From the UHGV virus genome UHGV-0139776: a stretch of 64,000 nt of DNA; one strand, 5' to 3'. Of this stretch, positions 16,353 through 63,995 are shown in pieces. This DNA is from a virus. The position numbers were made by a program, and so were the translations under genes. Numbering within the stretch: position 1 is the stretch's first letter; the number at the start of each line of letters is the position of its first letter. A model generated the notes under the pieces. That model had not been told where the DNA came from and did no database searches. It saw only the letters and a program-made list of their open reading frames with translations.

Positions 16353-16859
16353 TTGAGTATTTTCAATAAACACGCACACCAGGAACGTCCGTATATCGTC
16401 ATAGTTGATATTGATGGAACAATATCAGAGGCAACTGAAGACAGACTGCATTTGCTTCCGCCACCAGGTAAAGGTGCATTAACAAAGGACTGGAACGAGT
16501 TTAATCTCGCCTGTGACACTGATACTCCCATAACTCCAGTTATTGATATTGTGCGCCAGTTATTTAACGTTTACACGGTCTGGTTTGTAACCGGGCGCTG
16601 TGAGATCGCAAGGGATAAAACACGAGCCTGGCTGCGGAAGTACGTAACAAACGGGGCTGAGCCTTTGCTATCTATGCGTCCTGCCACCGATGACAGAAAT
16701 GACGGCCCAGCAAAGATTGATCTCCTTAAGAAAATTGGTCTAAGTAAAATCGCGTTCGCGCTGGAAGATAAGATTGAAGTGGCGCGTGTTTTCAGGAGTC
16801 ACGGCGTACTTACGTTAATGGTCAGGGAGTATGAAAACGCGCTTCTCCATCAACAATAA
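16353..16859 (+). CDS. pap: HAD-superfamily phosphatase-like protein
   Basis: VDIDGTIS (DxDGT) catalytic motif. Confidence 0.65.
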   Translation: MSIFNKHAHQERPYIVIVDIDGTISEATEDRLHLLPPPGKGALTKDWNEFNLACDTDTPITPVIDIVRQLFNVYTVWFVTGRCEIARDKTRAWLRKYVTNGAEPLLSMRPATDDRNDGPAKIDLLKKIGLSKIAFALEDKIEVARVFRSHGVLTLMVREYENALLHQQ

Positions 16860-16875
16860 TTGCTCTAATAAATCT
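16859..16875 (+). promoter_or_regulatory. C1 operator-like site
   Basis: ATTGCTCTAATAAATCT overlapping the stop codon. Confidence 0.65.
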
Positions 16876-34228: not shown

Positions 34229-34245
34229 TAATTTATTAGAGCAAT
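34229..34245 (-). promoter_or_regulatory. C1 operator-like site
   Basis: reverse complement ATTGCTCTAATAAATTA. Confidence 0.65.
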
Positions 34246-34371: not shown

Positions 34372-34405
34372 ATAACTTCGTATAGCATACATTATACGAA
34401 GTTAT
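34372..34405. other. loxP site
   Basis: exact ATAACTTCGTATA-GCATACAT-TATACGAAGTTAT. Confidence 0.98.
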
Positions 34406-34823
34406 CTTAAGGGTTATTGAACATGATCAATTTACCTGTAAATCCATACAGTTCAATACCTTATCAGGTCAAATAGTGATCACTTGATCATTTGATCAAG
34501 GTTGCGCTACGTAAAATCTGCGAAATGTTGGCAGTGTTAGTGCTCCAGATTTCGCGTAGCGCACTTAGCACCACCAATCAATCAGAGGTGAAAAATGGGA
34601 TATTCAGCTGCTAAAGTGTCCACTCATCTTGAGCTTGAGAAAAACCGTGGTTACTGGCGGGCAAAAGGGTTTGATCGTGATAGTTGCCAACTGTCATTAT
34701 CGCGCGGTGAAGAGAAAATAGAACGCACGCGCGGTCGCTGGCGTTTCTATGACGAGAACCATAAACAGGTAAAGGCAGAGCCAATCCTGTACACTTTACT
34801 TAAAACTATTATCTGAGTGTTAA

Positions 34824-35855
34824 ATGTCCAATTTACTGACCGTACACCAAAATTTGCCTGCATTACCGGTCGATGCAACGAGTGATGAGGTTCGCAAGAA
34901 CCTGATGGACATGTTCAGGGATCGCCAGGCGTTTTCTGAGCATACCTGGAAAATGCTTCTGTCCGTTTGCCGGTCGTGGGCGGCATGGTGCAAGTTGAAT
35001 AACCGGAAGTGGTTTCCCGCAGAACCTGAAGATGTTCGCGATTATCTTCTATATCTTCAGGCGCGCGGTCTGGCAGTAAAAACTATCCAGCAACATTTGG
35101 GCCAGCTAAACATGCTTCATCGTCGGTCCGGGCTGCCACGACCAAGTGACAGCAATGCTGTTTCACTGGTCATGCGGCGGATTCGAAAAGAAAACGTTGA
35201 TGCCGGTGAACGTGCAAAACAGGCATTGGCGTTCGAACGCACTGATTTCGACCAGGTTCGTTCACTCATGGAAAATAGCGATCGCTGCCAGGATATACGG
35301 AATCTGGCATTTCTGGGGATTGCTTATAACACCCTGTTACGTATAGCCGAAATTGCCAGGATCAGGGTTAAAGATATCTCACGTACTGACGGTGGGAGAA
35401 TGTTAATCCATATTGGCAGAACGAAAACACTGGTTAGCACCGCAGGTGTAGAGAAGGCACTTAGCCTGGGGGTAACTAAACTGGTCGAGCGATGGATTTC
35501 TGTCTCTGGTGTGGCTGATGATCCGAATAACTACCTGTTTTGCCGTGTCAGAAAAAATGGTGTTGCCGCGCCATCTGCCACCAGCCAGCTATCAACTCGC
35601 GCTCTGGAAGGGATTTTTGAAGCAACTCATCGATTGATTTACGGCGCTAAGGATGACTCTGGGCAGAGATACCTGGCCTGGTCTGGACACAGTGCCCGTG
35701 TCGGAGCCGCGCGAGATATGGCCCGCGCCGGAGTTTCAATACCGGAGATCATGCAAGCTGGTGGCTGGACCAATGTAAATATTGTCATGAACTACATTCG
35801 TAACCTGGATAGTGAAACGGGGGCAATGGTGCGCCTGCTGGAAGATGGCGATTAG
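34824..35855 (+). CDS. cre: Cre tyrosine recombinase
   Basis: 343 aa, MSNLLTVHQNLPALPVDATSDEVRKNLMDMF... Confidence 0.97.
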   Translation: MSNLLTVHQNLPALPVDATSDEVRKNLMDMFRDRQAFSEHTWKMLLSVCRSWAAWCKLNNRKWFPAEPEDVRDYLLYLQARGLAVKTIQQHLGQLNMLHRRSGLPRPSDSNAVSLVMRRIRKENVDAGERAKQALAFERTDFDQVRSLMENSDRCQDIRNLAFLGIAYNTLLRIAEIARIRVKDISRTDGGRMLIHIGRTKTLVSTAGVEKALSLGVTKLVERWISVSGVADDPNNYLFCRVRKNGVAAPSATSQLSTRALEGIFEATHRLIYGAKDDSGQRYLAWSGHSARVGAARDMARAGVSIPEIMQAGGWTNVNIVMNYIRNLDSETGAMVRLLEDGD

Positions 35856-35872
35856 CCGTTTATTTGCAACTG

Positions 35873-35889
35873 ATTGCTCTAATTATTTG
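35873..35889 (+). promoter_or_regulatory. C1 operator-like site
   Basis: ATTGCTCTAATTATTTG 18 bp after cre stop. Confidence 0.6.
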
Positions 35890-35905
35890 ATATTTATGGT
35901 GACAC

Positions 35906-36217
35906 ATGCGGAAGGATTTCAAAATAGACGGAAAATATGTGGTGCTGTCTGTAAGCTCTCAAATTCAGTCACCATCTGTCATTGTCACCGTAAAGTTGAG
36001 CGATAGGATGCCTGATATCGACTCGATATCTGTTGCGTTCCCCGTTAAAAGCATGCGGAGTGCTGAACATTTTGTGATGAATGCAACGGAGGAGGAAGCG
36101 CGGCGCGGGCTTACTAGAGTGATGGTGGAATTTGGCGAACTCCTGGGTAAGGTAAACAATGCCCTTTCAATCAGTTCAGCAAGATCCAAAGCGTTAACAG
36201 CTTCCATGATGAAATAA
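35906..36217 (+). CDS. hypothetical protein at the P1 cra position
   Basis: 103-aa ORF between cre and ref. Confidence 0.5.
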   Translation: MRKDFKIDGKYVVLSVSSQIQSPSVIVTVKLSDRMPDIDSISVAFPVKSMRSAEHFVMNATEEEARRGLTRVMVEFGELLGKVNNALSISSARSKALTASMMK

Positions 36218-36221
36218 AAAA

Positions 36222-36242
36222 AGCCTGGCAAGGAGCCAGGCT
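36222..36242. terminator. hairpin, terminator-like for leftward transcription
   Basis: AGCCTGGC-AAGGA-GCCAGGCT preceded by an A7 run (T7 on the minus strand). Confidence 0.45.
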
Positions 36243-36348
36243 GCACAAAAGAGCGGGTTTGTATTCCGCATCCAATCAATCAAGAAGGAGTATAGCACAC
36301 AGGTACTGAAGTGAAAAAATGTGATTCGCGATTAACAAAATACCTACC

Positions 36349-36378
36349 ATTGCTCTAATTGATTGCTATAATTAAGCC
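36349..36378 (+). promoter_or_regulatory. tandem overlapping C1 operator-like sites
   Basis: ATTGCTCTAATTGATTG and ATTGCTATAATTAAGCC upstream of ref. Confidence 0.6.
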
Positions 36379-36463
36379 GCAGTTTTTGTCAACTACGAAG
36401 ACGTTGCCATTACTTCACTCCTTGACATCATTGGCGGCCATTAGGCCGCCTTTTTTTTGCCAT

Positions 36464-37024
36464 ATGAAAACAATCGAACAAAAACTTGAACAGCGCCGCG
36501 AGTGGCAGAAGGCAGCCAGAGAACGAGCGATCGCTCGGCAACGGGAAAAGTTGGCTGACCCCGCCTGGCGAGAATCGCAATATCAGAAAATGCGGGATTC
36601 TATCGACCGCCGTATCGCTAAACAGAAAGAGCGCCCACCAGCCAGCAAAACGCGGAAAAGTGCGGTAAAAATAAAATCTCGTGGCTTGAAGGGGCGAACA
36701 CCGACGGAGGAGGAACAGACTATCGCCAATGCTCTTGGCACTCTCCCCTGCATTGCCTGCTACATGCATGGAGTAATATCTGAAGAGGTGTCTCTGCACC
36801 ATATCTCCGGTCGTACCGCGCCGGGTTGTCACAAAAAGCAATTGCCCCTTTGCAGATGGCACCACCAGCATGCAGCACCGGCTGAAGTAAGAGAAAAATA
36901 CCCCTGGCTGGTCCCTGTTCATGCCGATGGCGTGGTAGGAGGCAAGAAAGAATTCACCTTGTTGAACAAGTCAGAGATGGAGTTGCTGGCTGACGCCTAT
37001 GAAATGGCAAACATCATGCACTAA
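36464..37024 (+). CDS. ref: Ref (HNH-type recombination enhancement nuclease)
   Basis: 186 aa; basic N-terminus, HNH-like LHHISG...CRWHH core. Confidence 0.8.
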   Translation: MKTIEQKLEQRREWQKAARERAIARQREKLADPAWRESQYQKMRDSIDRRIAKQKERPPASKTRKSAVKIKSRGLKGRTPTEEEQTIANALGTLPCIACYMHGVISEEVSLHHISGRTAPGCHKKQLPLCRWHHQHAAPAEVREKYPWLVPVHADGVVGGKKEFTLLNKSEMELLADAYEMANIMH

Positions 37025-37212
37025 TAAATATATTATTTTTAATCTTAAATGATTGACAACTGACAAGTGACTTGAGTCAGAATCATCACACGCCCGGTAC
37101 GGATGGATCCCTTTTCAAATATTCCATGGACGGCACAGTCTGAGTACCGGGCGCTACCTTCAGTTGTATTGCTAAGCCGCCGCTGGTGGCTTTTCTTTTT
37201 TGTAGGGGCGCT

Positions 37213-37854
37213 ATGGATAAGAAAATATGCGTTGTTTCGATGAGCGTCGGCAAACCGGCGTCAATGACTGCTGCATGGATCAACAACGAGCTGATAATGG
37301 CTGAGCGGACCAGCTACCCTGAACGCCGCCGCGACATGGAACTCCAGCTGCTGCGCGAATTGCGAGAAAAAGAGGAAAAGGGTTTTATCGTGCTGGTGGA
37401 AGAGGAAAACAGCTTTATTACTGGTCGAGTTGGCCAGCGTGTAAGGTTGCGCGATCCCTTCATGAACGGCAGGCCGGTACTGATTGAAGCAATGCAGATT
37501 TACAAGGAGCTGGAACGCCAGAAAGCGATCAAGTTACCGCGCAAGGAATCCGGCAAATACATCCTCCACCAAAGCATCTTCGATTCCGAACACGATAAAA
37601 AAGGCGATGAATTTTTCAACATCAACTGGAGCGAAATAACGACAGAGCATGTTCTGACGTTACTATGTTGCTTTGCGACGGAATACAACAACGTTGCCAG
37701 CGCCGACTACATCAGGGCAATGGCTGGAGAAGTTGAAGCCCGCCAGGAACCATCGTTACTAAGTCCACTTATTAACATAATTCTGGGTACCCAGACACTG
37801 GAACAAAAAAAAGTGCCGAAAGGGGTATTAACAGGCAAGCATAATTATTTCTAA
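37213..37854 (+). CDS. mat: particle maturation protein-like
   Basis: 213-aa ORF from ATG 37213 at the P1 mat position. Confidence 0.6.
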   Translation: MDKKICVVSMSVGKPASMTAAWINNELIMAERTSYPERRRDMELQLLRELREKEEKGFIVLVEEENSFITGRVGQRVRLRDPFMNGRPVLIEAMQIYKELERQKAIKLPRKESGKYILHQSIFDSEHDKKGDEFFNINWSEITTEHVLTLLCCFATEYNNVASADYIRAMAGEVEARQEPSLLSPLINIILGTQTLEQKKVPKGVLTGKHNYF

Positions 37855-38052
37855 TAATTTATAGTGGGGACTTTTGATGGTGTAAAACCCCATGAATTAT
37901 TATTTTTTAGTTTTTTGATTCTATTTTTTTTGCATTACCCGTCATAAAAATGAGCTTGCTTACATAATAGAAAATTATTTTATCAACACTATTACAACAA
38001 ACGATTATCACTGATAACATGAGTCCTTTGAAAACAAAGGACTCACCATACT

Positions 38053-38661
38053 ATGTCTAATACCTCGGCAAATGAAATTGTACCGCACTTACCGCTAATT
38101 TTCGAAAATGAAGCTAATGGGATTCTTCAGGATCTGGCCTATACTCCATCGCTTATGGGGTTGATGATGTTCCCGACAGAAGAGGAGCTGAAAGCAGCGA
38201 GAAGCTACATAATTAACGTTTTTGAAGAGTGTTACCGAGCCGGTCATTTGCGCATTATGGGCTTTACTAATGAAGAAAACTTGTTCGGATACGCCTTAAT
38301 CTTCGGACATCCATCGGGAAATTTTCCGTTGTACTGTCATAAAATATATGTATATGAGCAATATCGTGGTAATGGACTTGGAAGTAATATACTGGCAGAA
38401 ATACTTGCATTTCCAAATGAGGTCGCTTTGATTTGCCAGTCTGATTTGGTTCCTTTTTATGAATCAGCCGGAATGCACTTTAAAGGAAATTACACCACTC
38501 CATCAGTCGCCAATTTCAAAAAAACTCGCGGCATGTATGAGGGGCTTTGTTTGATGAGCACTGAAAAAAATGCAAACTCTAATGGTGTACCTATATTCAT
38601 GCTGAACGATAACGATATTGATAACATCATACAGGCTATCGCATCATCGGCACCACGATAA
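38053..38661 (+). CDS. GNAT-family N-acetyltransferase
   Basis: YVYEQYRGNGLGSNIL acetyl-CoA-binding motif; AT-rich gene with 195-bp AT-rich leader. Confidence 0.7.
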   Translation: MSNTSANEIVPHLPLIFENEANGILQDLAYTPSLMGLMMFPTEEELKAARSYIINVFEECYRAGHLRIMGFTNEENLFGYALIFGHPSGNFPLYCHKIYVYEQYRGNGLGSNILAEILAFPNEVALICQSDLVPFYESAGMHFKGNYTTPSVANFKKTRGMYEGLCLMSTEKNANSNGVPIFMLNDNDIDNIIQAIASSAPR

Positions 38662-38743
38662 TATTAATAATTCATCTCGCCGCAGGAACTACAAACCAGT
38701 TGATTGTTTGTGAAACGCCCGGTGCAAACCGGGCCAACAAAAC

Positions 38744-38992
38744 TCAATCAGCATTGAGAAGCAATGCATTATCTATGATGATCTGCTCCCATTCTTCGAA
38801 TGCCCGGTCGCGGACGCCCTGGGGAACACTGTTTGTTTTGAAATCGACGACTGTACGCCATTTCCCGTCCGGACGGTACATGCGCAGAGCTTTACTTCCC
38901 CCTTCCCTGCGCACCTCAACGTTATGCTTGTCAGCAAACTCTTGTAATGCTCGTAGCGTCCCATGCTTTACTGTGTAGTATCGCTTTTTCAA
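38744..38992 (-). CDS. hypothetical protein (P1 lxc position)
   Basis: 82-aa ORF, last gene of the darB operon. Confidence 0.5.
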   Translation of the reverse strand: MKKRYYTVKHGTLRALQEFADKHNVEVRREGGSKALRMYRPDGKWRTVVDFKTNSVPQGVRDRAFEEWEQIIIDNALLLNAD

Positions 38993-39429
38993 GTTTTCTC
39001 TCCAGCCTGTGCCAAGGCTTCAACTTCCAAATCGTAAGACTCAAACTCATAGTCCTGGTCGTCAACTTCTTCAGGCACTGGCAGTAAATGCCAGGCTGAG
39101 TATATCTGACCATTATCAAAACGCTCCTGGCTGTAGAGCGTCGCGGCTATGAGTGTTAGCGCCGGGCGGTCATAACGGTAAATTTTGCGAACGTCACGGT
39201 CAACGAGACGACCGAAATTACCATAACCGCGCTCCAGTAATAATTTTTTAATTTCCGGCCAGTATGGACCATAGCTGCGGTACAGGCGGGGATTTTTCAG
39301 TAATCGCCCGCGTAGCCCTGACAGGAAGAAATCAACGTATTCGTCTTCTGTCTTTCCTAACAACGCTGTACGGAGTACCGCCTCAAGATATGTTTTATTC
39401 GGTTTTATTGTATCAGATAGTGTGGCCAT
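38989..39429 (-). CDS. hypothetical protein (P1 ulx position)
   Basis: 146-aa ORF coupled to neighbours. Confidence 0.5.
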   Translation of the reverse strand: MATLSDTIKPNKTYLEAVLRTALLGKTEDEYVDFFLSGLRGRLLKNPRLYRSYGPYWPEIKKLLLERGYGNFGRLVDRDVRKIYRYDRPALTLIAATLYSQERFDNGQIYSAWHLLPVPEEVDDQDYEFESYDLEVEALAQAGEKT

Positions 39430-39462
39430 ATTATGCGACGCCCGGCGAACCGGGCGCTCCTG

Positions 39463-42400
39463 TTATGCGTATTGTTGGATGACGGCCAGAACGTCCGCCA
39501 CGTTGTGTTTTGTCTCGATAATCCACCAGTTACCTGGGAAGTCGCTGTTCTTCGCCTTCGCTGGCAACCAGCGAGCGCCGAATTTCGCCTTGATTGCGTC
39601 TTTCGCACGGAAAAGAACCCCTTTCATGCCGGAGGCTTCCTGAAGCCCAAATACCTCGCCAGCGGCGAATTTTGGTGCGTACATCATCTTCAGGTCGGCG
39701 GTGGATACGCGATAATTCAGACCAAGAGACTGAGCTATGCTGGTGGCATCACCCTGTATTGATGATAACTCTTCTTGTTTCTCGTTTCTGGCAGCAATTT
39801 CTTCCTCCGTGATGTTGCCAAGGGCCAGGTTTATCCGATCAGCGTCTGCCTGTTTCTCTTCATCGGTGCGCCCGGCAAGTACCATGTTAATTCTGTGCAA
39901 TATCTCCACATGATTCTTGCGCATGCTGAGCAATTCCGGCGTAACCTCGTTAAGGTCCACCAGCCCAAGGATGGCAAGGTCGGTAAACATTGATACCAGG
40001 TTGTAGGTCATGCGATAGCTGAGTTGCCCATAGGCTGATGGCAACTGCACCGCATCCATTTTATAGGCATCCATAAATTTAGAGCCGTCGTTTACGACAT
40101 CCGCAATTGCCGGTGTGATTTTTCCTGTGGTGGCGGCCTCCCTGATTGCTGTTACCCACGATTGAGTCAGCGCGGCGACTGCATGATTCAGATTGACTTT
40201 CCGTTCTGCTGCAATGCGCGCGCTTGCTGCGTCCATTGCCTGCTTGATCTCGTCTTTATTGCTGTAAATGCCAATGGTGCCAAACTGTGCTGTGGTGATC
40301 TCATAATCTGACGCCCGGAACTCATTGGTACCGAAAATGGCATTGGTGACTTCAAGTTCAGAATCCCCGTTACGAGTAGCCCCCTGGCTTGTTTTCTCCG
40401 GCATTCTGGCGATCGCATCCGCTATTTTCTCCTGAATTGCTTCAGGGGATAGCGTATCTCCGTATGACGCGATTACATCGCCATAATTGGAGCCAAACAG
40501 TTCAACCAGGAATGCTTCTGCCGAACGGATCTGGCGGTTATTCCCTTCCGACATCATACCAAGCACCCATTTTGCAATTGACGACTTCAGCGCGCCGTCA
40601 CGGCGATCCGGGTAAACCGCATGCTTCAGTGGGTCCGTATAGGTACCAACAAAATCAATGCTATAGCCTGACTCTGTAGTCTGAACGCCGTATGAGTCAG
40701 TGATTTTGATCATGCCGCGCTGCTGGAAACGGTAGAAATCGTCACAGGAAACGATGTCGTTAATCCCGGCGATGGAGACGCCACCACTGATTTTCTGCAT
40801 AACAGCATCTTCATCGGGAGTTACATCAACCTGTTTATCCAGCGTCTTCACATCCCAGTTACCAGATTTGGTGCCTTTGAAGGTGAAGATGATCTCCACG
40901 TCTGCGCGCTGGCTGTCGAAGTCCAGCGACTTAATGCGAACGATATCACCGGCACAATCGTAGTATTGGCCTACACGCCATGAGCGATCGCCGATAACAA
41001 GGAACTCACTCGCATGGTTAACCAGGTCAGGATCAACATCCAGAATGCCTTTATTTAATGCATCCTCCACCAGCGGGCGCAGGCGTTTGATATCCGTCGC
41101 GGCCTTCTGAGTACGGTTCAATAATTTCTCATAGCGGGAGATGGCTTGAGAGATATTAGCCTTGCGCTGAATGGCGCTTTTCAACGACGCGCGATACTGT
41201 GCTAACAACATACGGTCTGTGTGATGGACACTCCCCCAGCGTGCCTTCCAGTCTGCGTTATCCGCTGCCTTGGCCATTGCCGCCTGTTTGAATTTAGCTA
41301 CCTCGGCGGTGGTCTTTTCAAGTTCCGCTTTGCTTCGCTCTAATTCAGCGGTAAGCACCTCCACATCCTCACCAGCTGCGTGCTGCGCCTTGATGTAGTT
41401 CTGAAGGTCGATAGTAGCCTGTTCTTTCTGGCGAGCGCGTTGCGCGGCTTTCGCCTTATCCATTTGAACCTGCATCATTGCCAGACGTTCGCCATCATCC
41501 TTAGCGGTATACATCTGCATTTCGATCATATCGTTGGCGTCGGCGTTCTCCATTTCTGACTTATCTGAACGGAGGATATCGGAGATCCAGCCTGCTTTAC
41601 GCTTCAGCGTCTTCAGTCGGTATTCATCGAAAGAACCCTTGCCGCAGTAGTAGTGAACGCGAACGCTTGCACGGTTGGAGCCAACTCGGGCACCGCGACC
41701 GTTTCGTTGCGCAATACTGGCTGGAGTCCATGGCAACGTCAGATGATGGATGTCAGTCGTTCCTCGATGCAGGTTGATACCCACCTCTGCCTTTTTGTTG
41801 CAGATGATGATCGGAGTCCGGCCCTCCTGGAAGTCGGCTGCAATCTTTTCCAGACCGCCCAACGACATTTCATTTTGCTGCGCGATATAGGCGTCATACA
41901 GAGCCATTTGCTCGTTGTATTTCGCTATCTGTGCATCTGTTGGTTCATCCGGTAACTCTTTCGGCGGTTTAACCGCTTTCAGTTTCTTACCGGTTTTACC
42001 TGCCTCGGCAACCGTCTGAGCATTCAGTATCCCCACCTTTGAAGGTTCAAGGTTAAGAGCATTGCAGATAATGCGCTTGAGCTTCTGGTGCTGCGTTTTT
42101 TCATCGGTGAAGATGATTTGCTTACCTTCCGGGAAAAACTCCTTCAGCGTGGCAATCAGCTTCGCGTATTTGGGCGTAACGGGGTGAGTTACGGTCTGTT
42201 CGTCAATGCCAAACCTGGCCAGGCGCTTATTCACTTCCTGCTCGAACGCTTCCGGAACCTGCAACTGAATAAACTCGCCCTTATCTATCAGGGAGTATTG
42301 CGATTGCTGCGTGATTAAATCATCACTGTCGTCGTCTTCGCTGGTGGCTTGTTTAGGCAAACTGTCCGCCAGCTGCTGCACCGCATCGGCGTACTCCGGC

Positions 42401-45400
42401 AGGAAACGATAGGTGATCCGGCGATAGTACAGGTCCATGTCAGTACATACGCGGTCCATATCCCTGATTATTGAGAAGATCGGACGGGCTTTCTCGTGCT
42501 CAATCACGCCGTCTTCATTGACCGAGGTCGTTACGCCATTGTTGGCTTTGGCCGCCGCTTCCGCCTGCTGACGCAATTCTTCATACGCCGCCAGTTGTTC
42601 TTCAGTAAGTGGTGCATCCTGCTGGTGTTCGTCCAGCTCCGGGATCTCCACGGTATCCTTAACGTCTTCCGCCGTTTTAAGCGTTACCCAGCGATGGAAT
42701 ATACCGCGCAGCGCATCAAGGTTTTCAAAGCCCACCAGCGCCATTTTTTCTTCAACTTCACCGCTGATTTTCTGTACCGTTTCCAGCCTGGTCTTGCCGA
42801 AGAATTTAACGAAGTCATCAGGACCGTAGATCCCCATCTTCTGCCAGTATTCCTTCGGCAGAACATGAGAAAGCATGTTGTATGCATCGATCGGGGTGTT
42901 AACGACTGGCGTTGCAGTCAGGAGAACCGGCCCGCGCCCGCCATTCTTTTTCATCAGGTACGCGTTTTTGATTGCCATATCCCGCGCCGATTGCGCCACC
43001 GCGCTGGTGGGCAGATAGGCCAGTTGTGACGCTTCGCGACCATTTTTATAGCTATTGCGGTAGTTGTGGCCTTCGTCGGCGATCACACTATCGAAGCCCA
43101 TATCCTCAAAGTACGGATATTTCTCTGCTTTTTCGGTACCGGTATCTGAATACTCCGACAATACCCGGCGACGCGCCGCCTCTTTACGATGGGAGTCGGA
43201 ATCCATTGCGCTGGCTACGCGCCCGGCGGCAACGAAGTCATAAAGCATGTCTTGTGCATGCTCATCTACGGTGTCATCACGTAGCGGAATGCGGGCGTAT
43301 TGTTCTTTGGTAAACACGACTGCACGGTAGTTTGAGTGCGGGATCGCGTTCATCCGCGCCGTGATAGTGGCTTCATCTGCCAGCTTAAGAGCATCGCGCA
43401 TAACTGGAGTGCCATCAGTACCAAGAACAGGTTTACCGTTCTCATTGAGCACCGGCACCTGGCGAATCTGATCGCCATCCATCAGCACATCAAGACCGAC
43501 GAACAAGTAGTTACTGAATGCCTCTTCACTCAGGAATTCTTTTGCTTCGTAATACCAATTTTCCAGCACTGATTTAGGCACTACATACGCAGTACGGGTA
43601 GAGCGACCGTTCTCATAGTTGAACGCCTCAAGCGCCAGCGCGGTCGTGGTTTTACCCAGCCCGGTGCCGAAGCCCAGGATGCCGCGCCCATCTTCGGACA
43701 GTCGGCGCACCTCGCTATTCTGGTAATCAAATGGCTGGCGCTTACCGCTTAATCCCTTCAACCCAAGCGGATCGCCAGAGTGTTCATACGGGATATTGCT
43801 ATTGAACACATCGTTGTATTTGGCAACCAGCTCATCGTAGCGATCGTGCGTCTTGATCCACTTATTGAACTGGTCCTCAAGCAGTGCCATCTGCTCGCGG
43901 TAGCCGTTCGCCGTCGCGCTATCTTTGCCACCGATACGCGCACCATTGAGATACTTTTCCAGCTGTGCCGGGAACCCGGTCGCGTTTTCACCCGATTTAC
44001 GGTCCCACTCGTAGCGGATCTCGCCTGTTTCTTTATCCTTGCGCTGGACGACACCGTATCGGTGCCCGACGAACAGACCATCACCACCGTGATAGGTGTC
44101 AGAAACCATTTCGTCGCCTTCCAGCTGCACTGACTGCACATAGCGCAGATCCGGATAGCCGTTTTCCTGCAAAAATTCCAGAATGACGGAGCGGTCGAAC
44201 CAACGGCTATTGAGCTTAAAGCGGATATTCTCTGCTGGCGTCTTGATGCGCTTCTCTTCGATCGCTGCCAGCTGATTAAGGACGTTGTTCTTTACTGGAC
44301 CGTCGGGGAGTGTGGCAAGAAATTCCTGTTTTGGAGCCACTATCTCGTTAATGTCGCCGCTGGTGGCGCGGGCGAACGGAACAATCCCGCCATACGGTGA
44401 AACCGCAATACCAGGGGTGCTGGCCAATAAATTAAGCAACTCTTCATCACTGGCTGGCAGTTCGCCGGTAAACGCAAGGCGGAAATCATCGAGCTGGATT
44501 GGATCGCGGGTAAGATCGCTATAGAGATAACGCAGGGTGTCCTGATAGCTGGTGGAGTCATAACTGGCGCTGGAATCATGCGTAACCAGCTTTCCTGTCA
44601 GCTCGTCAGAAATAGTGCCATCCAGCTTAATCGCACCACGGAAAGCAAACCAGGCGCGCGCACCGCTCCCCGACAATTTCGCTATCGGACCGCGACCGGG
44701 GTTACCAAAACGGTCAATCTCTGCCTGCAAACGGGATACCAGAGAAAGGCGCTGCTGTTCGATTTGTTCAGCACTATGCCCGGCGGCCTTCATGTCCTGA
44801 TATTCAATTAACATCCGGCCAATCATCGCCCCGCGATACAAGCGTTCACGGTATTTTTCAGGCTGGCTGTTAATCCAGTCCACCAGCTGCACCATATCGT
44901 CGCTGATTGATGTGGTGTACTTATCGCGGACATTTGCCATCTGGGTAAATGTCATGCCGAGACGGCCTTCTGTTGTAGTCAGGTTACGCTGAAGAGCCTC
45001 CCAGCTATCCGCGCCATAACTGGCAGCATCGATCTTAAGTTCCTTCCCGGCATCAGCTTCAATCCAGCGACCACCAGCATATTTTTGCCATACGCCACTA
45101 ATCAGGCGCATTTCCCCTTCACCAACAACGTCTGCGGTCGGTGACGGTTCAGCCATATCGAGCAAAGACCAGTCGATACGGCTTTCGAAACGATGAATCA
45201 GCTTCGCTTTAAGAGCCTGGTTATCAATCTGACCGTCGGCACGAACCTCAATACGCCCCTGGAAGCCCTTTTCCTGGGTGCCATGAACAAACCGGCGGCC
45301 GTCCTTTTCAAACCACTTGCCAGAAATAAACGTTGGCCAAAGCACATTTGCCGATTCGAGAGTGCTTTCATCCACCAGGGGGATTTTCTCAGCCATCTCT

Positions 45401-46230
45401 GCCGGATGTTTGCGCATCAGCACCACATCAACGACTGTACTGGTCCCGTTTGCGTCAAAAGTACCGGTAGGCAAGCGGTGAGCGCCAAGAAATTCAGCTT
45501 TCCGTGATAGGCGCAGGCGTAACCGCTTCATGTTTGAACCTGAAACAATGGACGGCGGCACAATCACACACATGAATCCGCCAGGCTTTATCTTGTCCAG
45601 CATGCGGAGCATGAAGTAAGAACCCATGTCCGTTTCTTCTGCGTAAGGCTTATCGATGTTGCGTGTGTTATCACGACCGCCGAACGGAACGTTACCCACA
45701 ACATGGTCGAATGAATCGTTAGGCGTGTTTATAGCCAGCTGTTCGAACGGGGAAATCTGTACGCTGTCTTCCGGGTGTAACAACTGGTTTATACGACCGG
45801 AAACACTGCTGATCTCAGTCGCGGTCATCACCGTACCAACCGGTTTTGTCTCATTAAAAACGCCGGTTCCCGCCGATGGTTCCAGAGTGTTACCTACGTC
45901 CGCGCCGTAGAGCTTCATGATCTCCCAGACACCTTCAGCGATAGGCTTTGGTGTGTAATATTCGGAGACGGACCCGCCAATGCCGCCTTCACCAGTGTAC
46001 CCGGCCAGGATCTGGCGCTGTTCATCTGTCAGTGTCGCGCCGTCCACCAGCGAATTAAGCAAATCTATCGCCTTCTGATTCGCCTCCCGGCGCAGTCGGT
46101 CATAGCTTTTGCCTTCCACCTTTTCCACGCCGTATTTAATCGGCGCTCGGTGAGATGTTATTGCCCTAATGTATTTCAATATTTCGCTGACACTTGAACA
46201 GCGAAACACACCCATAGATAGCTTGTTCAT
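39463..46230 (-). CDS. darB: DarB antirestriction protein (methyltransferase-helicase fusion)
   Basis: 2255 aa; N-terminal MTase motif NVPFGG, SF2 helicase motifs GTGLGKTT and DEGHNY. Confidence 0.9.
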   Translation of the reverse strand: MNKLSMGVFRCSSVSEILKYIRAITSHRAPIKYGVEKVEGKSYDRLRREANQKAIDLLNSLVDGATLTDEQRQILAGYTGEGGIGGSVSEYYTPKPIAEGVWEIMKLYGADVGNTLEPSAGTGVFNETKPVGTVMTATEISSVSGRINQLLHPEDSVQISPFEQLAINTPNDSFDHVVGNVPFGGRDNTRNIDKPYAEETDMGSYFMLRMLDKIKPGGFMCVIVPPSIVSGSNMKRLRLRLSRKAEFLGAHRLPTGTFDANGTSTVVDVVLMRKHPAEMAEKIPLVDESTLESANVLWPTFISGKWFEKDGRRFVHGTQEKGFQGRIEVRADGQIDNQALKAKLIHRFESRIDWSLLDMAEPSPTADVVGEGEMRLISGVWQKYAGGRWIEADAGKELKIDAASYGADSWEALQRNLTTTEGRLGMTFTQMANVRDKYTTSISDDMVQLVDWINSQPEKYRERLYRGAMIGRMLIEYQDMKAAGHSAEQIEQQRLSLVSRLQAEIDRFGNPGRGPIAKLSGSGARAWFAFRGAIKLDGTISDELTGKLVTHDSSASYDSTSYQDTLRYLYSDLTRDPIQLDDFRLAFTGELPASDEELLNLLASTPGIAVSPYGGIVPFARATSGDINEIVAPKQEFLATLPDGPVKNNVLNQLAAIEEKRIKTPAENIRFKLNSRWFDRSVILEFLQENGYPDLRYVQSVQLEGDEMVSDTYHGGDGLFVGHRYGVVQRKDKETGEIRYEWDRKSGENATGFPAQLEKYLNGARIGGKDSATANGYREQMALLEDQFNKWIKTHDRYDELVAKYNDVFNSNIPYEHSGDPLGLKGLSGKRQPFDYQNSEVRRLSEDGRGILGFGTGLGKTTTALALEAFNYENGRSTRTAYVVPKSVLENWYYEAKEFLSEEAFSNYLFVGLDVLMDGDQIRQVPVLNENGKPVLGTDGTPVMRDALKLADEATITARMNAIPHSNYRAVVFTKEQYARIPLRDDTVDEHAQDMLYDFVAAGRVASAMDSDSHRKEAARRRVLSEYSDTGTEKAEKYPYFEDMGFDSVIADEGHNYRNSYKNGREASQLAYLPTSAVAQSARDMAIKNAYLMKKNGGRGPVLLTATPVVNTPIDAYNMLSHVLPKEYWQKMGIYGPDDFVKFFGKTRLETVQKISGEVEEKMALVGFENLDALRGIFHRWVTLKTAEDVKDTVEIPELDEHQQDAPLTEEQLAAYEELRQQAEAAAKANNGVTTSVNEDGVIEHEKARPIFSIIRDMDRVCTDMDLYYRRITYRFLPEYADAVQQLADSLPKQATSEDDDSDDLITQQSQYSLIDKGEFIQLQVPEAFEQEVNKRLARFGIDEQTVTHPVTPKYAKLIATLKEFFPEGKQIIFTDEKTQHQKLKRIICNALNLEPSKVGILNAQTVAEAGKTGKKLKAVKPPKELPDEPTDAQIAKYNEQMALYDAYIAQQNEMSLGGLEKIAADFQEGRTPIIICNKKAEVGINLHRGTTDIHHLTLPWTPASIAQRNGRGARVGSNRASVRVHYYCGKGSFDEYRLKTLKRKAGWISDILRSDKSEMENADANDMIEMQMYTAKDDGERLAMMQVQMDKAKAAQRARQKEQATIDLQNYIKAQHAAGEDVEVLTAELERSKAELEKTTAEVAKFKQAAMAKAADNADWKARWGSVHHTDRMLLAQYRASLKSAIQRKANISQAISRYEKLLNRTQKAATDIKRLRPLVEDALNKGILDVDPDLVNHASEFLVIGDRSWRVGQYYDCAGDIVRIKSLDFDSQRADVEIIFTFKGTKSGNWDVKTLDKQVDVTPDEDAVMQKISGGVSIAGINDIVSCDDFYRFQQRGMIKITDSYGVQTTESGYSIDFVGTYTDPLKHAVYPDRRDGALKSSIAKWVLGMMSEGNNRQIRSAEAFLVELFGSNYGDVIASYGDTLSPEAIQEKIADAIARMPEKTSQGATRNGDSELEVTNAIFGTNEFRASDYEITTAQFGTIGIYSNKDEIKQAMDAASARIAAERKVNLNHAVAALTQSWVTAIREAATTGKITPAIADVVNDGSKFMDAYKMDAVQLPSAYGQLSYRMTYNLVSMFTDLAILGLVDLNEVTPELLSMRKNHVEILHRINMVLAGRTDEEKQADADRINLALGNITEEEIAARNEKQEELSSIQGDATSIAQSLGLNYRVSTADLKMMYAPKFAAGEVFGLQEASGMKGVLFRAKDAIKAKFGARWLPAKAKNSDFPGNWWIIETKHNVADVLAVIQQYA

Positions 46231-50003: not shown

Positions 50004-50020
50004 ATTGCTCTAATTAATTT
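50004..50020 (+). promoter_or_regulatory. C1 operator-like site
   Basis: ATTGCTCTAATTAATTT 20 bp upstream of ssb. Confidence 0.6.
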
Positions 50021-50730: not shown

Positions 50731-51519
50731 ATGACAGCACAAAATACTAAAACCATTCAATACTGCCTACGTAATGGCCAGAGTGTCGAAGTGACCATCA
50801 ATAATGATGGAGTACCTGGCGAAAAGGTTTCTATCTCTGATCTGGCTATCGAAAAAACCATCATGTGCCACCTTGGCTTTACTGAAGAAGTGAGCAAAAA
50901 GCATGGTGTAGCAATCTGGAGCGCAATGGATACTGGTATGCGCAAATTCATTACTGCTCGTACCCCAGGGATGACCATGATGGACCTCATGCAGATTGCG
51001 CCGCTGTTTGAATGTGAGCCTTTAGATGTATTCAGCAATCCAGCTATCTGCCAGCAGTTATATGGTGAGATGAAACTCGCGGTTACCCCCATTGTGCTGC
51101 ATGAAGGATCGCTTGCTGGCGTGTGGAAAGTAGAGCGTATTTCAAGCTACATGCCTTTCCATGTCAACGGCGTAATCACTGGTGAAAATCAACCTGTTTC
51201 CGTTATAAAGTCAGACCTCAAGCGCGCAATTCTTGAAGCAAGTTGTCGAGTTGTCGGCCTGGGCAAACAGTCTTATGTTTCCTTCCCGGCTGGCCCTGAA
51301 GGCCCGGCAGAAATTCTGATTATGGATGCCGATCTGCTATGGCAAATACAGTTTCTGATTGGCAAAAGCATCATCCGCGCTGAAGAACTCGATCAGTACA
51401 TTACCTGCACGATGACGGATGAAGTCAAAAGTGTGGCTATAGCCAATGCCCGGAACCTATGTCGTGCTGCATTAACAGAACTGCAAGAAAACACCACGGA
51501 AGAGGTGGAAAGTGATTAA
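50731..51519 (+). CDS. hypothetical protein
   Basis: 263-aa ORF from ATG 50731; stop overlaps next gene. Confidence 0.5.
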   Translation: MTAQNTKTIQYCLRNGQSVEVTINNDGVPGEKVSISDLAIEKTIMCHLGFTEEVSKKHGVAIWSAMDTGMRKFITARTPGMTMMDLMQIAPLFECEPLDVFSNPAICQQLYGEMKLAVTPIVLHEGSLAGVWKVERISSYMPFHVNGVITGENQPVSVIKSDLKRAILEASCRVVGLGKQSYVSFPAGPEGPAEILIMDADLLWQIQFLIGKSIIRAEELDQYITCTMTDEVKSVAIANARNLCRAALTELQENTTEEVESD

Positions 51520-52606
51520 TCGTATACAGAATGAATCTGCCTGGTTAGCACTGATAGAACGGTATAAAGACAATTGGGAACTGGCAGCAAAAGAGTTGCT
51601 TGATATTGAGTTAACACCTCATCAAGCAAAAATTATTAACGCGATAAAGAACACCGGAGCCAAAATCACTGCCACCACACCACATGGTATTGGGGAAACC
51701 TCTATTGTGGCAGTGATTAGCATCCTGCAAACAATACTGTATTCGTGTTCCCGTACAGTGGTTGTTTCTCCTGCGATTAACGATTGTCGAAAAACAATAA
51801 TTGACTATATGTTCCGTTATTGGGAGCGAGTTACCCAAAAACACCCTTTTCTTGGCAATTATTTCAGAATACACCCTGACAAAGGGTTGGTGCATATCAG
51901 TGAAACATGGGGATGCGTCTATATAACCTATTGTCTGAATAACGAAGAGTCTCTGGCTGGTTTTACTGGACCGCACGATCTTTTCATCGTTATTAACTCG
52001 GCGGAAATCAGCGATCGCGCTCATGCAGTGATAACTGGCAATTTAACCAATTATGACTCGCGCCTGCTGTTGCTGTCGAAACCATCGGAACGCGAGAAAG
52101 GGTACTTTTATGATTCGCATCACCGGTTGGCCCATAGTAAAAACAATCCTGCTGGTTTTTTCACGGCGATAACTCTAAACACAGAGGATTCACCTCTCGT
52201 TTCTGAAGCATATCTTGAATTCAAAGCCAAAGAGTTTGGTGGGCGCAATAGCGATGAATATCGCCGATTGATCTTGGGGAAATTCCCCGGGATTCGGGAG
52301 TTGATGGAAAAGTCATCTGTTCCCCGTAATATGCACTTCACAATGACTGACGGTAGTAAATGGGTAGTGCCTACGATCGTGATCGCCAAACACCATGCGA
52401 AACATCACGCTCAAAAACACAACTCCAGCACATTAGACTGGCTGAAGGCCTATACAATACCGTTATTCTCGGCAAACCATAACGCTATAACTGAATGGGC
52501 TAAACAAATCCCCTGGCAGGATGTGGCTGAAGAGGCATTTGTCGAAAAACCACCAAGAGATATGCACGAGCACTGTTGGCTGACATCAGAAAAGAGTTTC
52601 TCGTGA
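51512..52606 (+). CDS. PacB-paralogous terminase-ATPase-like protein, motifs degenerate
   Basis: about 50% identical to PacB residues 1-300 in this window, but Walker A is HGIGETS (K to E) and Walker B is IVINSAE (DE to NS); nuclease domain absent. Confidence 0.7.
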   Translation: MINRIQNESAWLALIERYKDNWELAAKELLDIELTPHQAKIINAIKNTGAKITATTPHGIGETSIVAVISILQTILYSCSRTVVVSPAINDCRKTIIDYMFRYWERVTQKHPFLGNYFRIHPDKGLVHISETWGCVYITYCLNNEESLAGFTGPHDLFIVINSAEISDRAHAVITGNLTNYDSRLLLLSKPSEREKGYFYDSHHRLAHSKNNPAGFFTAITLNTEDSPLVSEAYLEFKAKEFGGRNSDEYRRLILGKFPGIRELMEKSSVPRNMHFTMTDGSKWVVPTIVIAKHHAKHHAQKHNSSTLDWLKAYTIPLFSANHNAITEWAKQIPWQDVAEEAFVEKPPRDMHEHCWLTSEKSFS

Positions 52607-52637
52607 GGTAAAAATCCCGCCAATTGGCGGGATTTCT

Positions 52638-52949
52638 TCAATATACGATCTGGTCTACATGATCACCAAAATCATCGTCGTCGTCGTCCTCATCGCCACC
52701 ATCTACTGCTGGCCAATCAACAAACCAGCCAGCGTAAAGATGCAGCGTTCGGAGAACATCACTTGCGGGAGCATCAAGGGTGTTAACGAATCCCATATAG
52801 CTATTGGGATTTGCCCCAGCTATGGCTTCAGCGATCATGTCCTCGGTAATGTCACCGGAGATAATGCTTAAACGCCCGGAAACTTCTTCATTATCATCAA
52901 ATTCGATAATGGCATCTCCGCCTAATGGCGCTGCGATTTTAATCTGCAT
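52638..52949 (-). CDS. acidic hypothetical protein
   Basis: 103-aa ORF with poly-Asp tail, last gene of the darA operon. Confidence 0.5.
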   Translation of the reverse strand: MQIKIAAPLGGDAIIEFDDNEEVSGRLSIISGDITEDMIAEAIAGANPNSYMGFVNTLDAPASDVLRTLHLYAGWFVDWPAVDGGDEDDDDDDFGDHVDQIVY

Positions 52950-60045: not shown

Positions 60046-60231
60046 ATGCTAATAGGCTATGTACGCATATAGACAAATGAACAAAACACAGCTATGCAGT
60101 GAAAAGCACTTGAAAGCGCAGGATGTGAGCTAATTTTTGCGAATAAGGCGAGCAGCAAAAAGGCTGGGCACCCTGGGTTAAAAAAGGTTCTGCGTATGCT
60201 TTCCAGAGGTGATACCCTAGTCTCGGACTAG
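60046..60231 (+). pseudogene. remnant of a cin/hin-family serine invertase gene
   Basis: reads MLIGYVRI*TNEQNTAMQ*KALESAGCELIF...GLKKVLRMLSRGDTLV then ends; two in-frame stops; about 60% identical to the first 61 codons of the adjacent intact invertase. Confidence 0.7.
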
Positions 60232-60353
60232 GGACAACATTTCGAGGACAGTTTTCATTAGCGGTCAGCAGGCGCTAGATACATCGAATTGATGTGCCGC
60301 GCGATAAATGTACCTATTCTATCAAGATAAATTACACCGACGCGGCATTAGAA

Positions 60354-60926
60354 TTACAGCTCAGATTGAGTTTGGCGCTTCTCTACAGGATGATAACGAT
60401 AAATCGTCGATACACCGATATCGTAAATAATTGCCAACTGTTTCCTGCTGTAGCCATTTTCGATCAACCTCGCTATTTGCTCATGTTGTTCTTTTGTCAA
60501 CTTCGGGCGACGTCCGCCAATGCGTCCCTGTTCGCGTGCAGCTGCCAGTCCGGCCAGTGTTCTCTCAACAATTAATTCACGTTCCATTTCTGCTAAAGCC
60601 CCCATGACGTGAAAAAAGAAACGCCCCATGGGTGTTGATGTGTCAATACTGTCTGTCAGACTACGGAAATTAACACCTTTTTCCCGCAACTCCTCTATAA
60701 GCGTGATAAGGTGTTTCATACTTCTGCCAAGCCTATCCAGCTTCCAGACAACCAGCGTATCTCCTTCTGATAACGTTCTGAGCAGCTTTTTCAAGCCTGG
60801 TCTGGCTGATTTTGTTCCGCTTATTTTATCTTCAAAAATCAGTTCACATCCTGCGCAGTTCAGTGCATTTCTTTGTAAATCTGTGTTTTGGTCATTTGTT
60901 GACACACGAATGTAGCCAATTTGCAT
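60354..60926 (-). CDS. cin: Cin/Min/Hin-family serine DNA invertase
   Basis: MQIGYIRVSTNDQNTDLQRNAL... with catalytic Ser in YIRVS and C-terminal HTH; ATG at 60926 (track start 60935 is TTG). Confidence 0.9.
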   Translation of the reverse strand: MQIGYIRVSTNDQNTDLQRNALNCAGCELIFEDKISGTKSARPGLKKLLRTLSEGDTLVVWKLDRLGRSMKHLITLIEELREKGVNFRSLTDSIDTSTPMGRFFFHVMGALAEMERELIVERTLAGLAAAREQGRIGGRRPKLTKEQHEQIARLIENGYSRKQLAIIYDIGVSTIYRYHPVEKRQTQSEL

Positions 60927-60980
60927 GAAAAACAACCTCTTTGTTTAGTTAAAAATACATCGTTGGTATAGGTAGGGATT

Positions 60981-61006
60981 AAGACTAAAACGTTGGTTTG
61001 GGGGAA
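60981..61006 (+). other. invertase crossover site 1 (cix/mix-like)
   Basis: AAGACTAAAACG-TT-GGTTTGGGGGAA, 12-2-12 hix/gix-like; 55 bp upstream of the invertase start. Confidence 0.75.
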
Positions 61007-61429
61007 GGCTCGGCACTGCCCGTTGGTGTGCCTGTTCCGTGGCCCTCAGCCACACCGCCAGCAGGGTGGCTGAAATGTAACGGCGCAGCATTTTCTTCTG
61101 AAATGTACCCAAATCTGGCAAGGGCTTACCCCACCAATAAATTGCCGGATTTACGCGGTGAGTTTATCCGTGGTTGGGATGATGGGCGTGGAGTGGATAG
61201 TGGGCGCGCGTTATTATCAACTCAAACAGATGAATTTAAATCACATAGTCATTATTTCGAAAGAACATGGGCACAAACTGGATTTGATACAACAGGCGGA
61301 TATTATCTTTTAGCCGCTGATGTTTCTGGCTCAGTAATTCAACAGAGATCGGATAGCACTAACTCGGTGGGGGGGAGAGAATCTCGCCCTCGTAATATTG
61401 CATTTAATTACATCGTAAGAGCGGCATAG
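60998..61429 (+). CDS. tail-fibre C-terminal cassette 1 (no own ATG)
   Basis: conserved N part LPVGVPVPWPSATPP.GWLKCNGAAF and C end RPRNIAFNYIVRAA; tail-collar-domain-like. Confidence 0.7.
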   Translation: MGEGSALPVGVPVPWPSATPPAGWLKCNGAAFSSEMYPNLARAYPTNKLPDLRGEFIRGWDDGRGVDSGRALLSTQTDEFKSHSHYFERTWAQTGFDTTGGYYLLAADVSGSVIQQRSDSTNSVGGRESRPRNIAFNYIVRAA

Positions 61430-61448
61430 AAACGTTGGTTTAGGAGAA
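61423..61448 (+). other. invertase crossover site 2
   Basis: GGCATAGAAACG-TT-GGTTTAGGAGAA; contains the stop codon of cassette 1. Confidence 0.75.
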
Positions 61449-61469
61449 GGCTCGGCGCTTCCCGTTGGT

Positions 61470-61898
61470 GTGCCTGTTCCGTGGCCCTCAGCCACACCAC
61501 CAACGGGGTGGCTGAAATGTAACGGAGCAGCATTTTCTTCTGAAAAGTACCCAAATCTGGCAAAGGTTTACCCCACCAATAAATTGCCGGATCTACGGGG
61601 CGAATTTATTCGAGGTTGGGATGATGGACGAGGTGTGGATGCGGGAAGGGGCATCTTAAGCATACAGGGGTGGTTAACAGGAAGTCATTATCATAATATT
61701 CGGTCATGGGACGCGTGGGATAACACGGTATTGGTGCCAAATGACAGAGGGGGGGATAGTCTGTTGTCGACAGATAACGCCGTCCAAGAAGGAGCGATTA
61801 ATGGTAAATTTACCAGTCAATACAGAACGGAGTTATCTGGGGGGAATGAAACCCGCCCACGTAACATTGCCTTCAATTATATTGTGAGAGCAGCATAA
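61470..61898 (+). CDS. tail-fibre C-terminal cassette 2
   Basis: same conserved ends, different middle; followed directly by tfa. Confidence 0.7.
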   Translation: MPVPWPSATPPTGWLKCNGAAFSSEKYPNLAKVYPTNKLPDLRGEFIRGWDDGRGVDAGRGILSIQGWLTGSHYHNIRSWDAWDNTVLVPNDRGGDSLLSTDNAVQEGAINGKFTSQYRTELSGGNETRPRNIAFNYIVRAA

Positions 61899-62509: not shown

Positions 62510-62514
62510 TATAA

Positions 62515-62982: not shown

Positions 62983-63003
62983 ACCAACGGGCAGCGCCGA
63001 GCC

Positions 63004-63029
63004 TTCCCCTAAACCAACGTTTTCATGCT
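63004..63029 (-). other. invertase crossover site 3
   Basis: TTCCCCTAAACC-AA-CGTTTTCATGCT, inverted relative to sites 1-2; holds the stop of cassette 4. Confidence 0.75.
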
Positions 63030-63490: not shown

Positions 63491-63507
63491 ACCAACGTTT
63501 TTATGTG
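63482..63507 (-). other. invertase crossover site 4
   Basis: TTCCCCCAAACC-AA-CGTTTTTATGTG; holds the stop of cassette 5. Confidence 0.75.
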
Positions 63508-63974: not shown

Positions 63975-63995
63975 ACCAACGGGCAGCGCCGAGCC

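Follow-up and report, generated by a model that had tools for sequence, protein, structure and literature searches.

The window analysed here is a stretch of 64,000 nucleotides (64 kb) from the virus genome UHGV-0139776, a P1-like phage-plasmid that carries, in the slot between mat and lxc, a single gene for a GNAT-fold N-acetyltransferase (Table 1; gene names were taken from annotated relatives). In BLAST comparisons with P1 (AF234172), P1 1-3413 corresponds to window 34389-37799 and P1 9752-11500 to window 38746-40494, and the replaced segment is window 37800-38745 against P1 3414-9751, that is, 946 bp here versus 6.3 kb with res and mod in P1. The GNAT gene is the sole sizeable open reading frame (ORF) between mat and lxc, and the GC content is about 50% in the flanks, 38-43% in the ORF and 28-30% in its leader. 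It can be said with high confidence that the region is a self-contained single-gene cargo, made of a promoter-like leader and a GNAT protein of 202 amino acids (aa), which replaces the EcoP1I res-mod genes. An earlier reading of this DNA from its letters only (the sequence-only reading) had noted that restriction or modification ORFs are lacking at the locus and had left room for a res-mod system just outside it; searches with P1 Res (tblastn) and with the whole P1 res-mod interval (tblastx) agree with the former and dispose of the latter, as res-mod is absent from the entire 64-kb window. The same reading had assigned both res-mod and an IS1 to the corresponding interval of P1. The interval does hold res and mod, an IS5 being located within mod in the strain sequenced, mod749::IS5; the IS1 lies outside it, at P1 22626-23393, between isaA and isaB.

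Table 1. Features of the mat-lxc slot of UHGV-0139776 and of its surroundings (window coordinates).
Feature	Position	Strand	Remarks
GNAT-fold N-acetyltransferase gene	38053-38661	+	609 bp including stop, 202 aa, ATG start
AT-rich leader	37855-38052	+	198 bp, 28-30% GC
Sigma-70-like site	37874-37903	+	found by consensus scan
Candidate own promoter	37992-38020	+	TTACAA, 17 nt, TAACAT; TG at 38012-38013 (extended -10)
Perfect 11-bp inverted repeat / RNA hairpin	38020-38045	+	arms 38020-38030 and 38035-38045; 4-nt loop
3' untranslated tail of cassette	38662-38713	+	no homology to the RCS47 empty site
Divergent mat 3' end, left recombination junction	37800-37854	+	last ~18 codons; P1 homology stops at 37799
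Right junction	38714-38745		GC-rich hairpin GCCCGGT/ACCGGGC (38714-38735) beside the lxc stop codon
cre	34824-35855		followed by c8, ref and mat
mat	ends at 37854		left flank of the slot
lxc (bof)	38744-38992	-	conserved right flank of the slot
ulx	38989-39429	-
darB	39463-46230	-	2,255 aa
C1-operator-like sites (examples)	751-767, 16859-16875, 34229-34245, 50004-50020

The exchangeability of the mat-lxc locus was already known, since res-mod figures in the literature on P1-like phage-plasmids as their "variable region 1" (PMC9603915); the defence systems named in the literature for these elements are type III restriction-modification (R-M), dGTPase, PrrC and CapRel. A 2.25-kb query spanning mat-lxc matched 703 plasmid records, and the GNAT cassette is found in 21 of these P1-like records (~3%). 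The gene occurs in 19 of 5,426 complete E. coli genomes (0.35%), always plasmid-borne, on plasmids of 91-110 kb, and two alleles, with 100% and ~84% amino-acid identity, share the P1 slot. Elsewhere the site is empty (RCS47) or occupied by type III R-M, as in P1 and pRHB20-C18_3. This comparison of the mat-to-lxc interval across P1-like elements, which the sequence-only reading had proposed, indicates that the GNAT gene is not core, and the view of a swapped accessory locus put forward there is sustained: with high confidence, the GNAT gene of UHGV-0139776 is swapped accessory cargo in a known hotspot.

What else occupies the slot was surveyed in an even-step sample of 60 among the 703 records, which yielded SIR2 proteins (~13), RelA/SpoT proteins (~6), DUF2971 proteins (~6) and PIN proteins (2), besides small hypotheticals or an empty site and about 26 records whose inserts were too long for the search to bridge. 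Three long-insert records were inspected, and they carry type III R-M, a YaaC-family gene with a hypothetical, and an EAL-domain gene. Four of these kinds of cargo match PADLOC models (SIR2, PDC-S25/ThsA; PIN, PDC-S34; DUF2971, PDC-S31; RelA/SpoT, PDC-S33), and the RelA/SpoT cargo is CapRelSJ46 itself (PDB 7ZTB, E = 5e-185), an experimentally established anti-phage fused toxin-antitoxin (PMC9712102). Phage SJ46 has CapRelSJ46 in the mat-lxc slot, and CapRel-type genes are also there in many E. coli plasmids. The GNAT cassette resembles CapRelSJ46 and res-mod in having the same flanks (ref-mat on the left, lxc-ulx-darB on the right), in being one cargo at a time and in its low GC content; it differs in that the cargo is an acetyltransferase, neither a type III R-M system nor a toxin-antitoxin of the fused toxSAS type, and lacks a match to any PADLOC model. 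Among individual records, the slot holds a YaaC-family protein with a 169-aa protein (L055, 6420-7969), an EAL-domain protein (L056, 6321-7010), a 199-aa protein with a helix-turn-helix (HTH) protein (L016, 1486-3060) or a 132-aa protein (L050, 991-1389), the proteins of the last two records having no PADLOC match. In phage vB_EcoM-673R5 (L014, 2150-3249) the annotation breaks up both the CapRel-type slot gene, into ORFs of 183 and 181 aa, and mat, also into two ORFs; these splits look like frameshifts or assembly errors.

The borders of the swapped segment can be placed closely. As the P1 match ends at window 37799, divergence begins within mat, about 55 bp before its 3' end. Mat C-termini vary among plasmids with GNAT, DUF2971 or IS1/EAL-type cargos, and because the last ~18 mat codons diverge with the cargo, the recombination junction is located inside mat; alignments to RCS47, in which the mat-lxc spacing is only 39 bp, put the left junction within the same codons. 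On the right, alignment shows that the GC-rich hairpin belongs to the backbone, being common to the RCS47 empty site; the right-flank homology of other plasmids begins at window 38717-38746 and that of P1 resumes at 38746. The slot is exchanged via recombination in its flanks, inside the mat 3' end on one side and at the lxc stop codon on the other.

The GNAT identity proposed from the sequence holds in a profile search of the 202-aa protein, which passes two Pfam gathering thresholds (Acetyltransf_10, 27.3 bits with a cut-off of 23.6; Acetyltransf_1, 25.6 bits with a cut-off of 20.7); Acetyltransf_7, at 25.3 bits, is under its cut-off of 27. Motif A, with the pattern (R/Q)-x-x-G-x-(G/A), forms the loop that follows strand beta-4 and binds the pyrophosphate of acetyl-CoA; here it reads R105-G106-N107-G108-L109-G110, and R105, G106, G108, G110 and S111 are invariant across 18 homologues. 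In a wider alignment of 50 sequences, some with as little as 20% identity, conservation is highest at A21, G108 (at least 90%), F135, G140, D186 and D188. The AlphaFold2 (AF2) model is confident (pLDDT 88) and has the mixed alpha/beta fold of a GNAT core, with helices at 4-62 before the core and one at 186-199 after it. These N-terminal helices and the C-terminal LND-x-D helix are extra to the core and highly conserved, and conservation spans the whole length of the protein, including the C-terminal P-I-F-M-L-N-D-x-D-I segment. The protein is acidic, with an isoelectric point (pI) of 4.95 and a net charge of -9 (family median pI 5.3), and this bulk charge points away from nucleic-acid binding. 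Its PHROG family is annotated as of unknown function.

Chain A of PDB entry 9S30 is identical to the protein over all 202 residues (31-232 of a construct that adds 30 N-terminal residues). The molecule name is generic, "GNAT family N-acetyltransferase"; the entry is absent from a structure library covering releases up to 2026-04-08, and no paper for it was found. The deposit means that the protein is evidently under study by others. No paper on the protein was found in the literature, the PANGU preprint and both CapRel papers make no mention of it, and no discussion of a GNAT cargo of the mat-lxc slot was found; the hotspot and its logic are already known, and the GNAT cargo itself is an uncharacterised addition.

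That the cassette is a decaying remnant, left without current function after the loss of res-mod, might be supposed from its being small, rare and AT-rich. Against this, all 19 full-length copies (at least 97% identity) have an intact ORF, a second allele (84% amino-acid identity) sits in the same slot, the alleles differ by a ratio of nonsynonymous to synonymous substitution rates (dN/dS) of 0.10-0.35, the catalytic motifs do not vary, and the segment has no sequence in common with res-mod. The gene is intact and under purifying selection, and decay, already contradicted by the selection analysis, is hardly credible.

The closest solved proteins point to the kind of chemistry involved. By sequence and profile the nearest is AANAT (arylalkylamine or serotonin N-acetyltransferase; 7e-5), followed by SSAT1/2 (spermidine/spermine N1-acetyltransferases), thialysine and ornithine N-acetyltransferases, and AANAT, SSAT1/2, SpeG and PaiA are also among the top Foldseek matches. 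With AANAT and SSAT the protein has in common the motif-A P-loop and the LVPFY-x-x-x-G-x-H segment, and its acidic character would suit cationic amine substrates. The similarity to AANAT is local only (E ~1e-4); in this alignment H96 falls on H122, Y136 on Y168 and Y94 on H120, and conservation across the wider family reaches at least 80% for Y136 and only 60-80% for H96. In AANAT, H120 and H122 are the catalytic His pair and Y168 is the Tyr general acid, and the AANAT match 1L0C is a structure from a study of its catalytic residues. The acetyl-CoA-binding motif is kept, the AANAT-like catalytic His and Tyr positions seem to be kept as well, and the enzyme is probably catalytically competent. 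On account of its charge and nearest relatives, a cationic amine or a basic protein is proposed as substrate rather than tRNA.

The same relationships would fit a lysogenic-conversion gene (moron) of benefit to the host, whose product would detoxify or modify an environmental amine (a polyamine, a biogenic arylalkylamine, an aminoglycoside-like antibiotic or an aminoacyl-nucleotide microcin) and so help the lysogen in the gut: the nearest relatives act on small-molecule amines, an acidic protein is what enzymes acting on polycations tend to be, the slot also takes the not obviously defensive EAL-domain protein, and P1-like phage-plasmids are known to carry resistance genes (PMC9603915). However, NCBIfam resistance and equivalog models give at best 12-13 bits against cut-offs of 86-171 (13 against 170 for the best), neither an insertion sequence nor an integron is attached, unlike typical resistance cargo, the gene is rare in complete E. 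coli genomes, and its homologues repeatedly adjoin dedicated defence genes in chromosomal islands. Such a role is therefore regarded as unlikely.

The leader suggests how the gene may be controlled. It is AT-rich, as the sequence-only reading had it, and measures 198 bp instead of 195 bp; the perfect hairpin before the ATG is likewise real but longer and closer to the start, having 11-bp arms and ending 7 nt before the ATG, and not 9-bp arms at 38022-38043 with a 9-nt spacing. Perfect 11-bp short-loop inverted repeats have an estimated chance expectation of ~0.002 in 891 bp. The 86-nt context folds at -17.9 kcal/mol (z = -4.8; none of 200 shuffles was as stable), the 11-bp hairpin dominating, and the Shine-Dalgarno (SD) sequence AAGGA (38037-38041) lies within its 3' arm. 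This hairpin exists only in near-identical copies; in other alleles the SD pairs less strongly, with another segment that lies downstream. The SD is sequestered in all alleles, and very strongly in UHGV-0139776. The candidate promoter was read by eye; the consensus scan did not call it. In the enterobacterial members the GNAT gene is accompanied by about 70-95 nt of its upstream sequence, and a TGnTAA(C/T)AT element, a candidate extended -10, recurs at an unchanged distance from the ATG in homologues borne by unrelated elements, followed by an untranslated region (UTR) of ~30 nt and an SD in a small hairpin. The UHGV-0139776 copy, TGnTAACAT, is at 38012-38020, with TTACAA 17 nt upstream. In seven loci (L002, L006, L009, L020, L038, L041, L043) a conserved block from about -95 to -1 before the GNAT start consists of a near-palindrome CCT-N3-AGG, then TAAATATTTG, then TGnTAA(C/T)AT; the P1-slot alleles retain only the proximal part of it. 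Beyond about -140 nt the upstream identity between loci is ~50%, as between unrelated flanks. A LexA or sigma-54 site in the conserved leader was considered and rejected on inspection of spacing and sequence.

A search of 37800-38800 against Rfam gave no match at E <= 1, so that the leader does not belong to any known class of riboswitch or leader RNA. The C1-operator consensus ATTGCTCTAATAAATTT, allowing up to 3 mismatches, occurs at 13 sites in the window against 0.27 expected by chance, which confirms a P1-type immunity network in UHGV-0139776; none of these sites is in the leader, and it is for this reason that expression of the GNAT gene from the plasmid prophage, in the lysogen, is proposed. 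We infer the following regulation as a whole from the leader sequence. Transcription from the gene's own promoter would start ~7 nt downstream of the -10 element, inside the 5' arm of the 11-bp hairpin; because most of that arm would then be missing, such transcripts would have a free SD. Read-through transcripts from mat, or transcripts from the upstream sigma-70-like site, would have the SD locked by the hairpin and be silenced, an arrangement that would insulate the cargo from phage read-through transcription, and translation of the GNAT protein would be held low through SD sequestration. Alternatively, the 26-bp palindrome may be a protein operator private to the gene; its half-site is not enriched in the window (16 matches versus 15.8 expected), which gives no support for a regulon.

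Tight translational control would also be expected of a toxin, and a toxin-like acetyltransferase was among the roles first suggested for the gene. In this case the GNAT protein would serve abortive infection or plasmid addiction, neutralised by translational control, by an autoinhibitory N- or C-terminal segment in the manner of CapRel, or by an antisense RNA. The slot is that of a fused toxin-antitoxin, CapRelSJ46, the SD is sequestered in every allele and very strongly here, and the conserved N-terminal helices and LND-x-D helix beyond the GNAT core would be at hand for autoinhibition. The protein is like the toxins of the TacAT, AtaRT, KacAT and ItaRT systems in its GNAT fold, in its size (theirs ~170-200 aa), in its presence on plasmids and prophages and in its apparently low expression. 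Those toxins, however, have an adjacent, co-transcribed ribbon-helix-helix (RHH/DUF1778) antitoxin gene, whereas no RHH or other conserved partner accompanies the GNAT gene: neither the leader nor the tail of the cassette has an ORF of 40 aa or more, and no antitoxin gene is conserved across 20 loci, so that the earlier remark that no antitoxin-like ORF is visible is valid at the locus and family-wide. Moreover, tRNA-binding GNAT toxins are basic and this protein is acidic; a profile search of all PDB sequences found no TacT/AtaT/KacT/ItaT-type toxin at E <= 1, and in Foldseek AtaT (6ajm) ranks only 45th and the "bacterial toxin" entry 7byy 37th. With high confidence the gene is not a classical type II GNAT-RHH toxin-antitoxin, and a tRNA toxin is disfavoured (no partner, acidic protein, no toxin-type profile match). 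The full-length protein was expressed and crystallised (9S30), which argues against severe toxicity in E. coli. A further point in favour of a toxin comes from the integron cassettes: Brc113 and BrcP, single-gene GNAT cassettes, are reported as phage-resistance candidates from a functional screen (bioRxiv 10.1101/2024.07.02.601719), whose authors suspected some BRiC cassettes of being toxic or costly, and several, including the GNAT cassette brc113, entered P. aeruginosa PAO1 only under a weaker promoter. Taken together, a toxin of this wider kind is judged quite improbable.

The distribution of the family is that of a solitary gene moving among phage-plasmids, F-type plasmids, lambdoid prophages, integrative and conjugative elements (ICEs) and chromosomal islands. 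A word-indexed search returned 23 clusters, all of ~200 aa, from Enterobacterales and Pseudomonas, and an exhaustive profile search 170 representatives at E <= 1e-3, 57 of them at E <= 1e-10, most top matches being 190-210 aa long. Homologues are found in Klebsiella IncFII plasmids after repA, ~5 kb from McrBC; in Serratia phage-plasmids with a P7-type C1 repressor; in a Raoultella lambdoid prophage, on the strand opposite to the neighbours; in a Serratia aquatilis ICE, adjoining an Mrr-type nuclease as well as a C5-methylase/DUF4928 pair; next to two NACHT giants in an island of Enterobacter mori; and near an IS3 element in an island of Serratia marcescens. In Pseudomonas a homologue lies 60 bp upstream of DSR1 (PADLOC E = 0), and others are beside an E1-like/DUF6791 gene or adjoin glmS on its 3' side. 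When the neighbours in 20 loci, taken from unrelated elements, were compared all against all, no conserved partner gene emerged. The recurring "neighbours" among these loci were antisense ORFs inside the GNAT gene, taken as conserved-coding artefacts, and a Serratia 95-aa ORF overlapping the GNAT start was set aside as element backbone, being far from the GNAT gene in L038. Two Pseudomonas loci (L023 and L025) have, at identical coordinates (6584-7396, + strand), a 270-aa ORF 40 nt after the homologue, with no Pfam or PADLOC match, which could represent a two-gene variant of the module in Pseudomonas. In Pseudomonas sp. ERMR1:02 (L021, 6609-10387) the DSR1 gene directly downstream of the homologue is split into ORFs of 907 and 352 aa that jointly cover the DSR1 profile, either by a frameshift or by a sequencing error.

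The neighbourhoods also bear on the possibility that the protein is a counter-defence or phage-fitness factor of the P1-like element, which would acetylate a host immune protein or signal, or phage or host components, and complement the Dar genes. AcrVA5 is a GNAT anti-CRISPR that acetylates and disables Cas12a, the gene directly adjoins the anti-restriction genes lxc-ulx-darB, and its carriers (phages, plasmids and ICEs) commonly encode anti-defence genes. Yet the gene is convergent with the dar-side operon and not part of it, it shows neither a C1 operator nor any recognisable control in the lytic phase, every characterised cargo of the slot is a defence system, and homologues also occur in chromosomal islands beside DSR1 and NACHT genes, away from any phage. 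Counter-defence is thus considered distinctly unlikely.

The reading most favoured by context is that of a defence-hotspot cargo in the CapRelSJ46 slot, which was absent from the three options of the sequence-only reading. The GNAT protein would protect the lysogen against other phages, the same purpose as that of most of its slot-mates and of many of its neighbours elsewhere; a probability of roughly 45% is assigned to this. Defence genes (DSR1, E1-like, McrBC, NACHT, and type II R-M with Mrr) lie within ~5 kb in at least 7 of ~14 distinct contexts, the P1 slot itself with its two GNAT alleles being counted among them, a small sample counted without a formal background rate. The evidence for a role in defence is associative, the GNAT protein has no PADLOC v2.0 match even at E <= 10, and the slot also takes cargo without an obvious link to defence (proteins with an EAL domain, of the YaaC family, of the HTH type, and small ones). 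The closest functional precedent for such a defence cargo is that of Brc113 and BrcP, compared by description only, which are likewise stand-alone GNAT-domain genes on mobile elements, although their vehicle is an attC cassette.

As to mechanism, the GNAT protein may act as a stand-alone anti-phage or competition factor that N-acetylates a positively charged target with acetyl-CoA, the target being either a small molecule of the polyamine type or a basic component of phage or host, and not aminoacyl-tRNA; examples would be the polyamines used in packaging the genome, a modified nucleotide with an amine group, and a protein that is internal or binds DNA. More broadly, and only tentatively, the family of ~200-aa acidic GNAT proteins might constitute a new stand-alone anti-phage effector, which would acetylate a small cationic molecule or some basic component of the phage, partner-free and controlled mainly via translation. 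Two immune systems of mechanistic importance have already come from the mat-lxc slot, the capsid-sensing CapRelSJ46 and the type III restriction system EcoP1I, and its position there, together with its solitary travel and its DSR1, McrBC, NACHT and R-M neighbours, makes the GNAT gene a well-motivated candidate for an undescribed single-protein defence. If this were the case, acetylation of a non-tRNA target would join the chemistries of bacterial immunity, distinct from nucleases, NAD depletion and tRNA attack, and the commonness of small solitary GNAT genes in prophages, plasmids and integron cassettes would be explained. Should the protein instead be a detoxifying or anti-defence enzyme, the slot would be a general cargo site, which matters for "guilt by hotspot" predictions.

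Away from the slot, the window departs from P1 in further places. The P1 homology (P1 11.5-40 kb compared) stops at window 60222, equivalent to P1 31836, at the cin/invertible tail-fibre region, and window 60223-64000 has an ORF set unlike that of P1. At window 51521-52639 a 364-aa ORF (51512-52606, + strand), which has no match in Pfam or PADLOC, replaces IS1 and isaB between isaA and hxr, and this segment may be another cargo slot.

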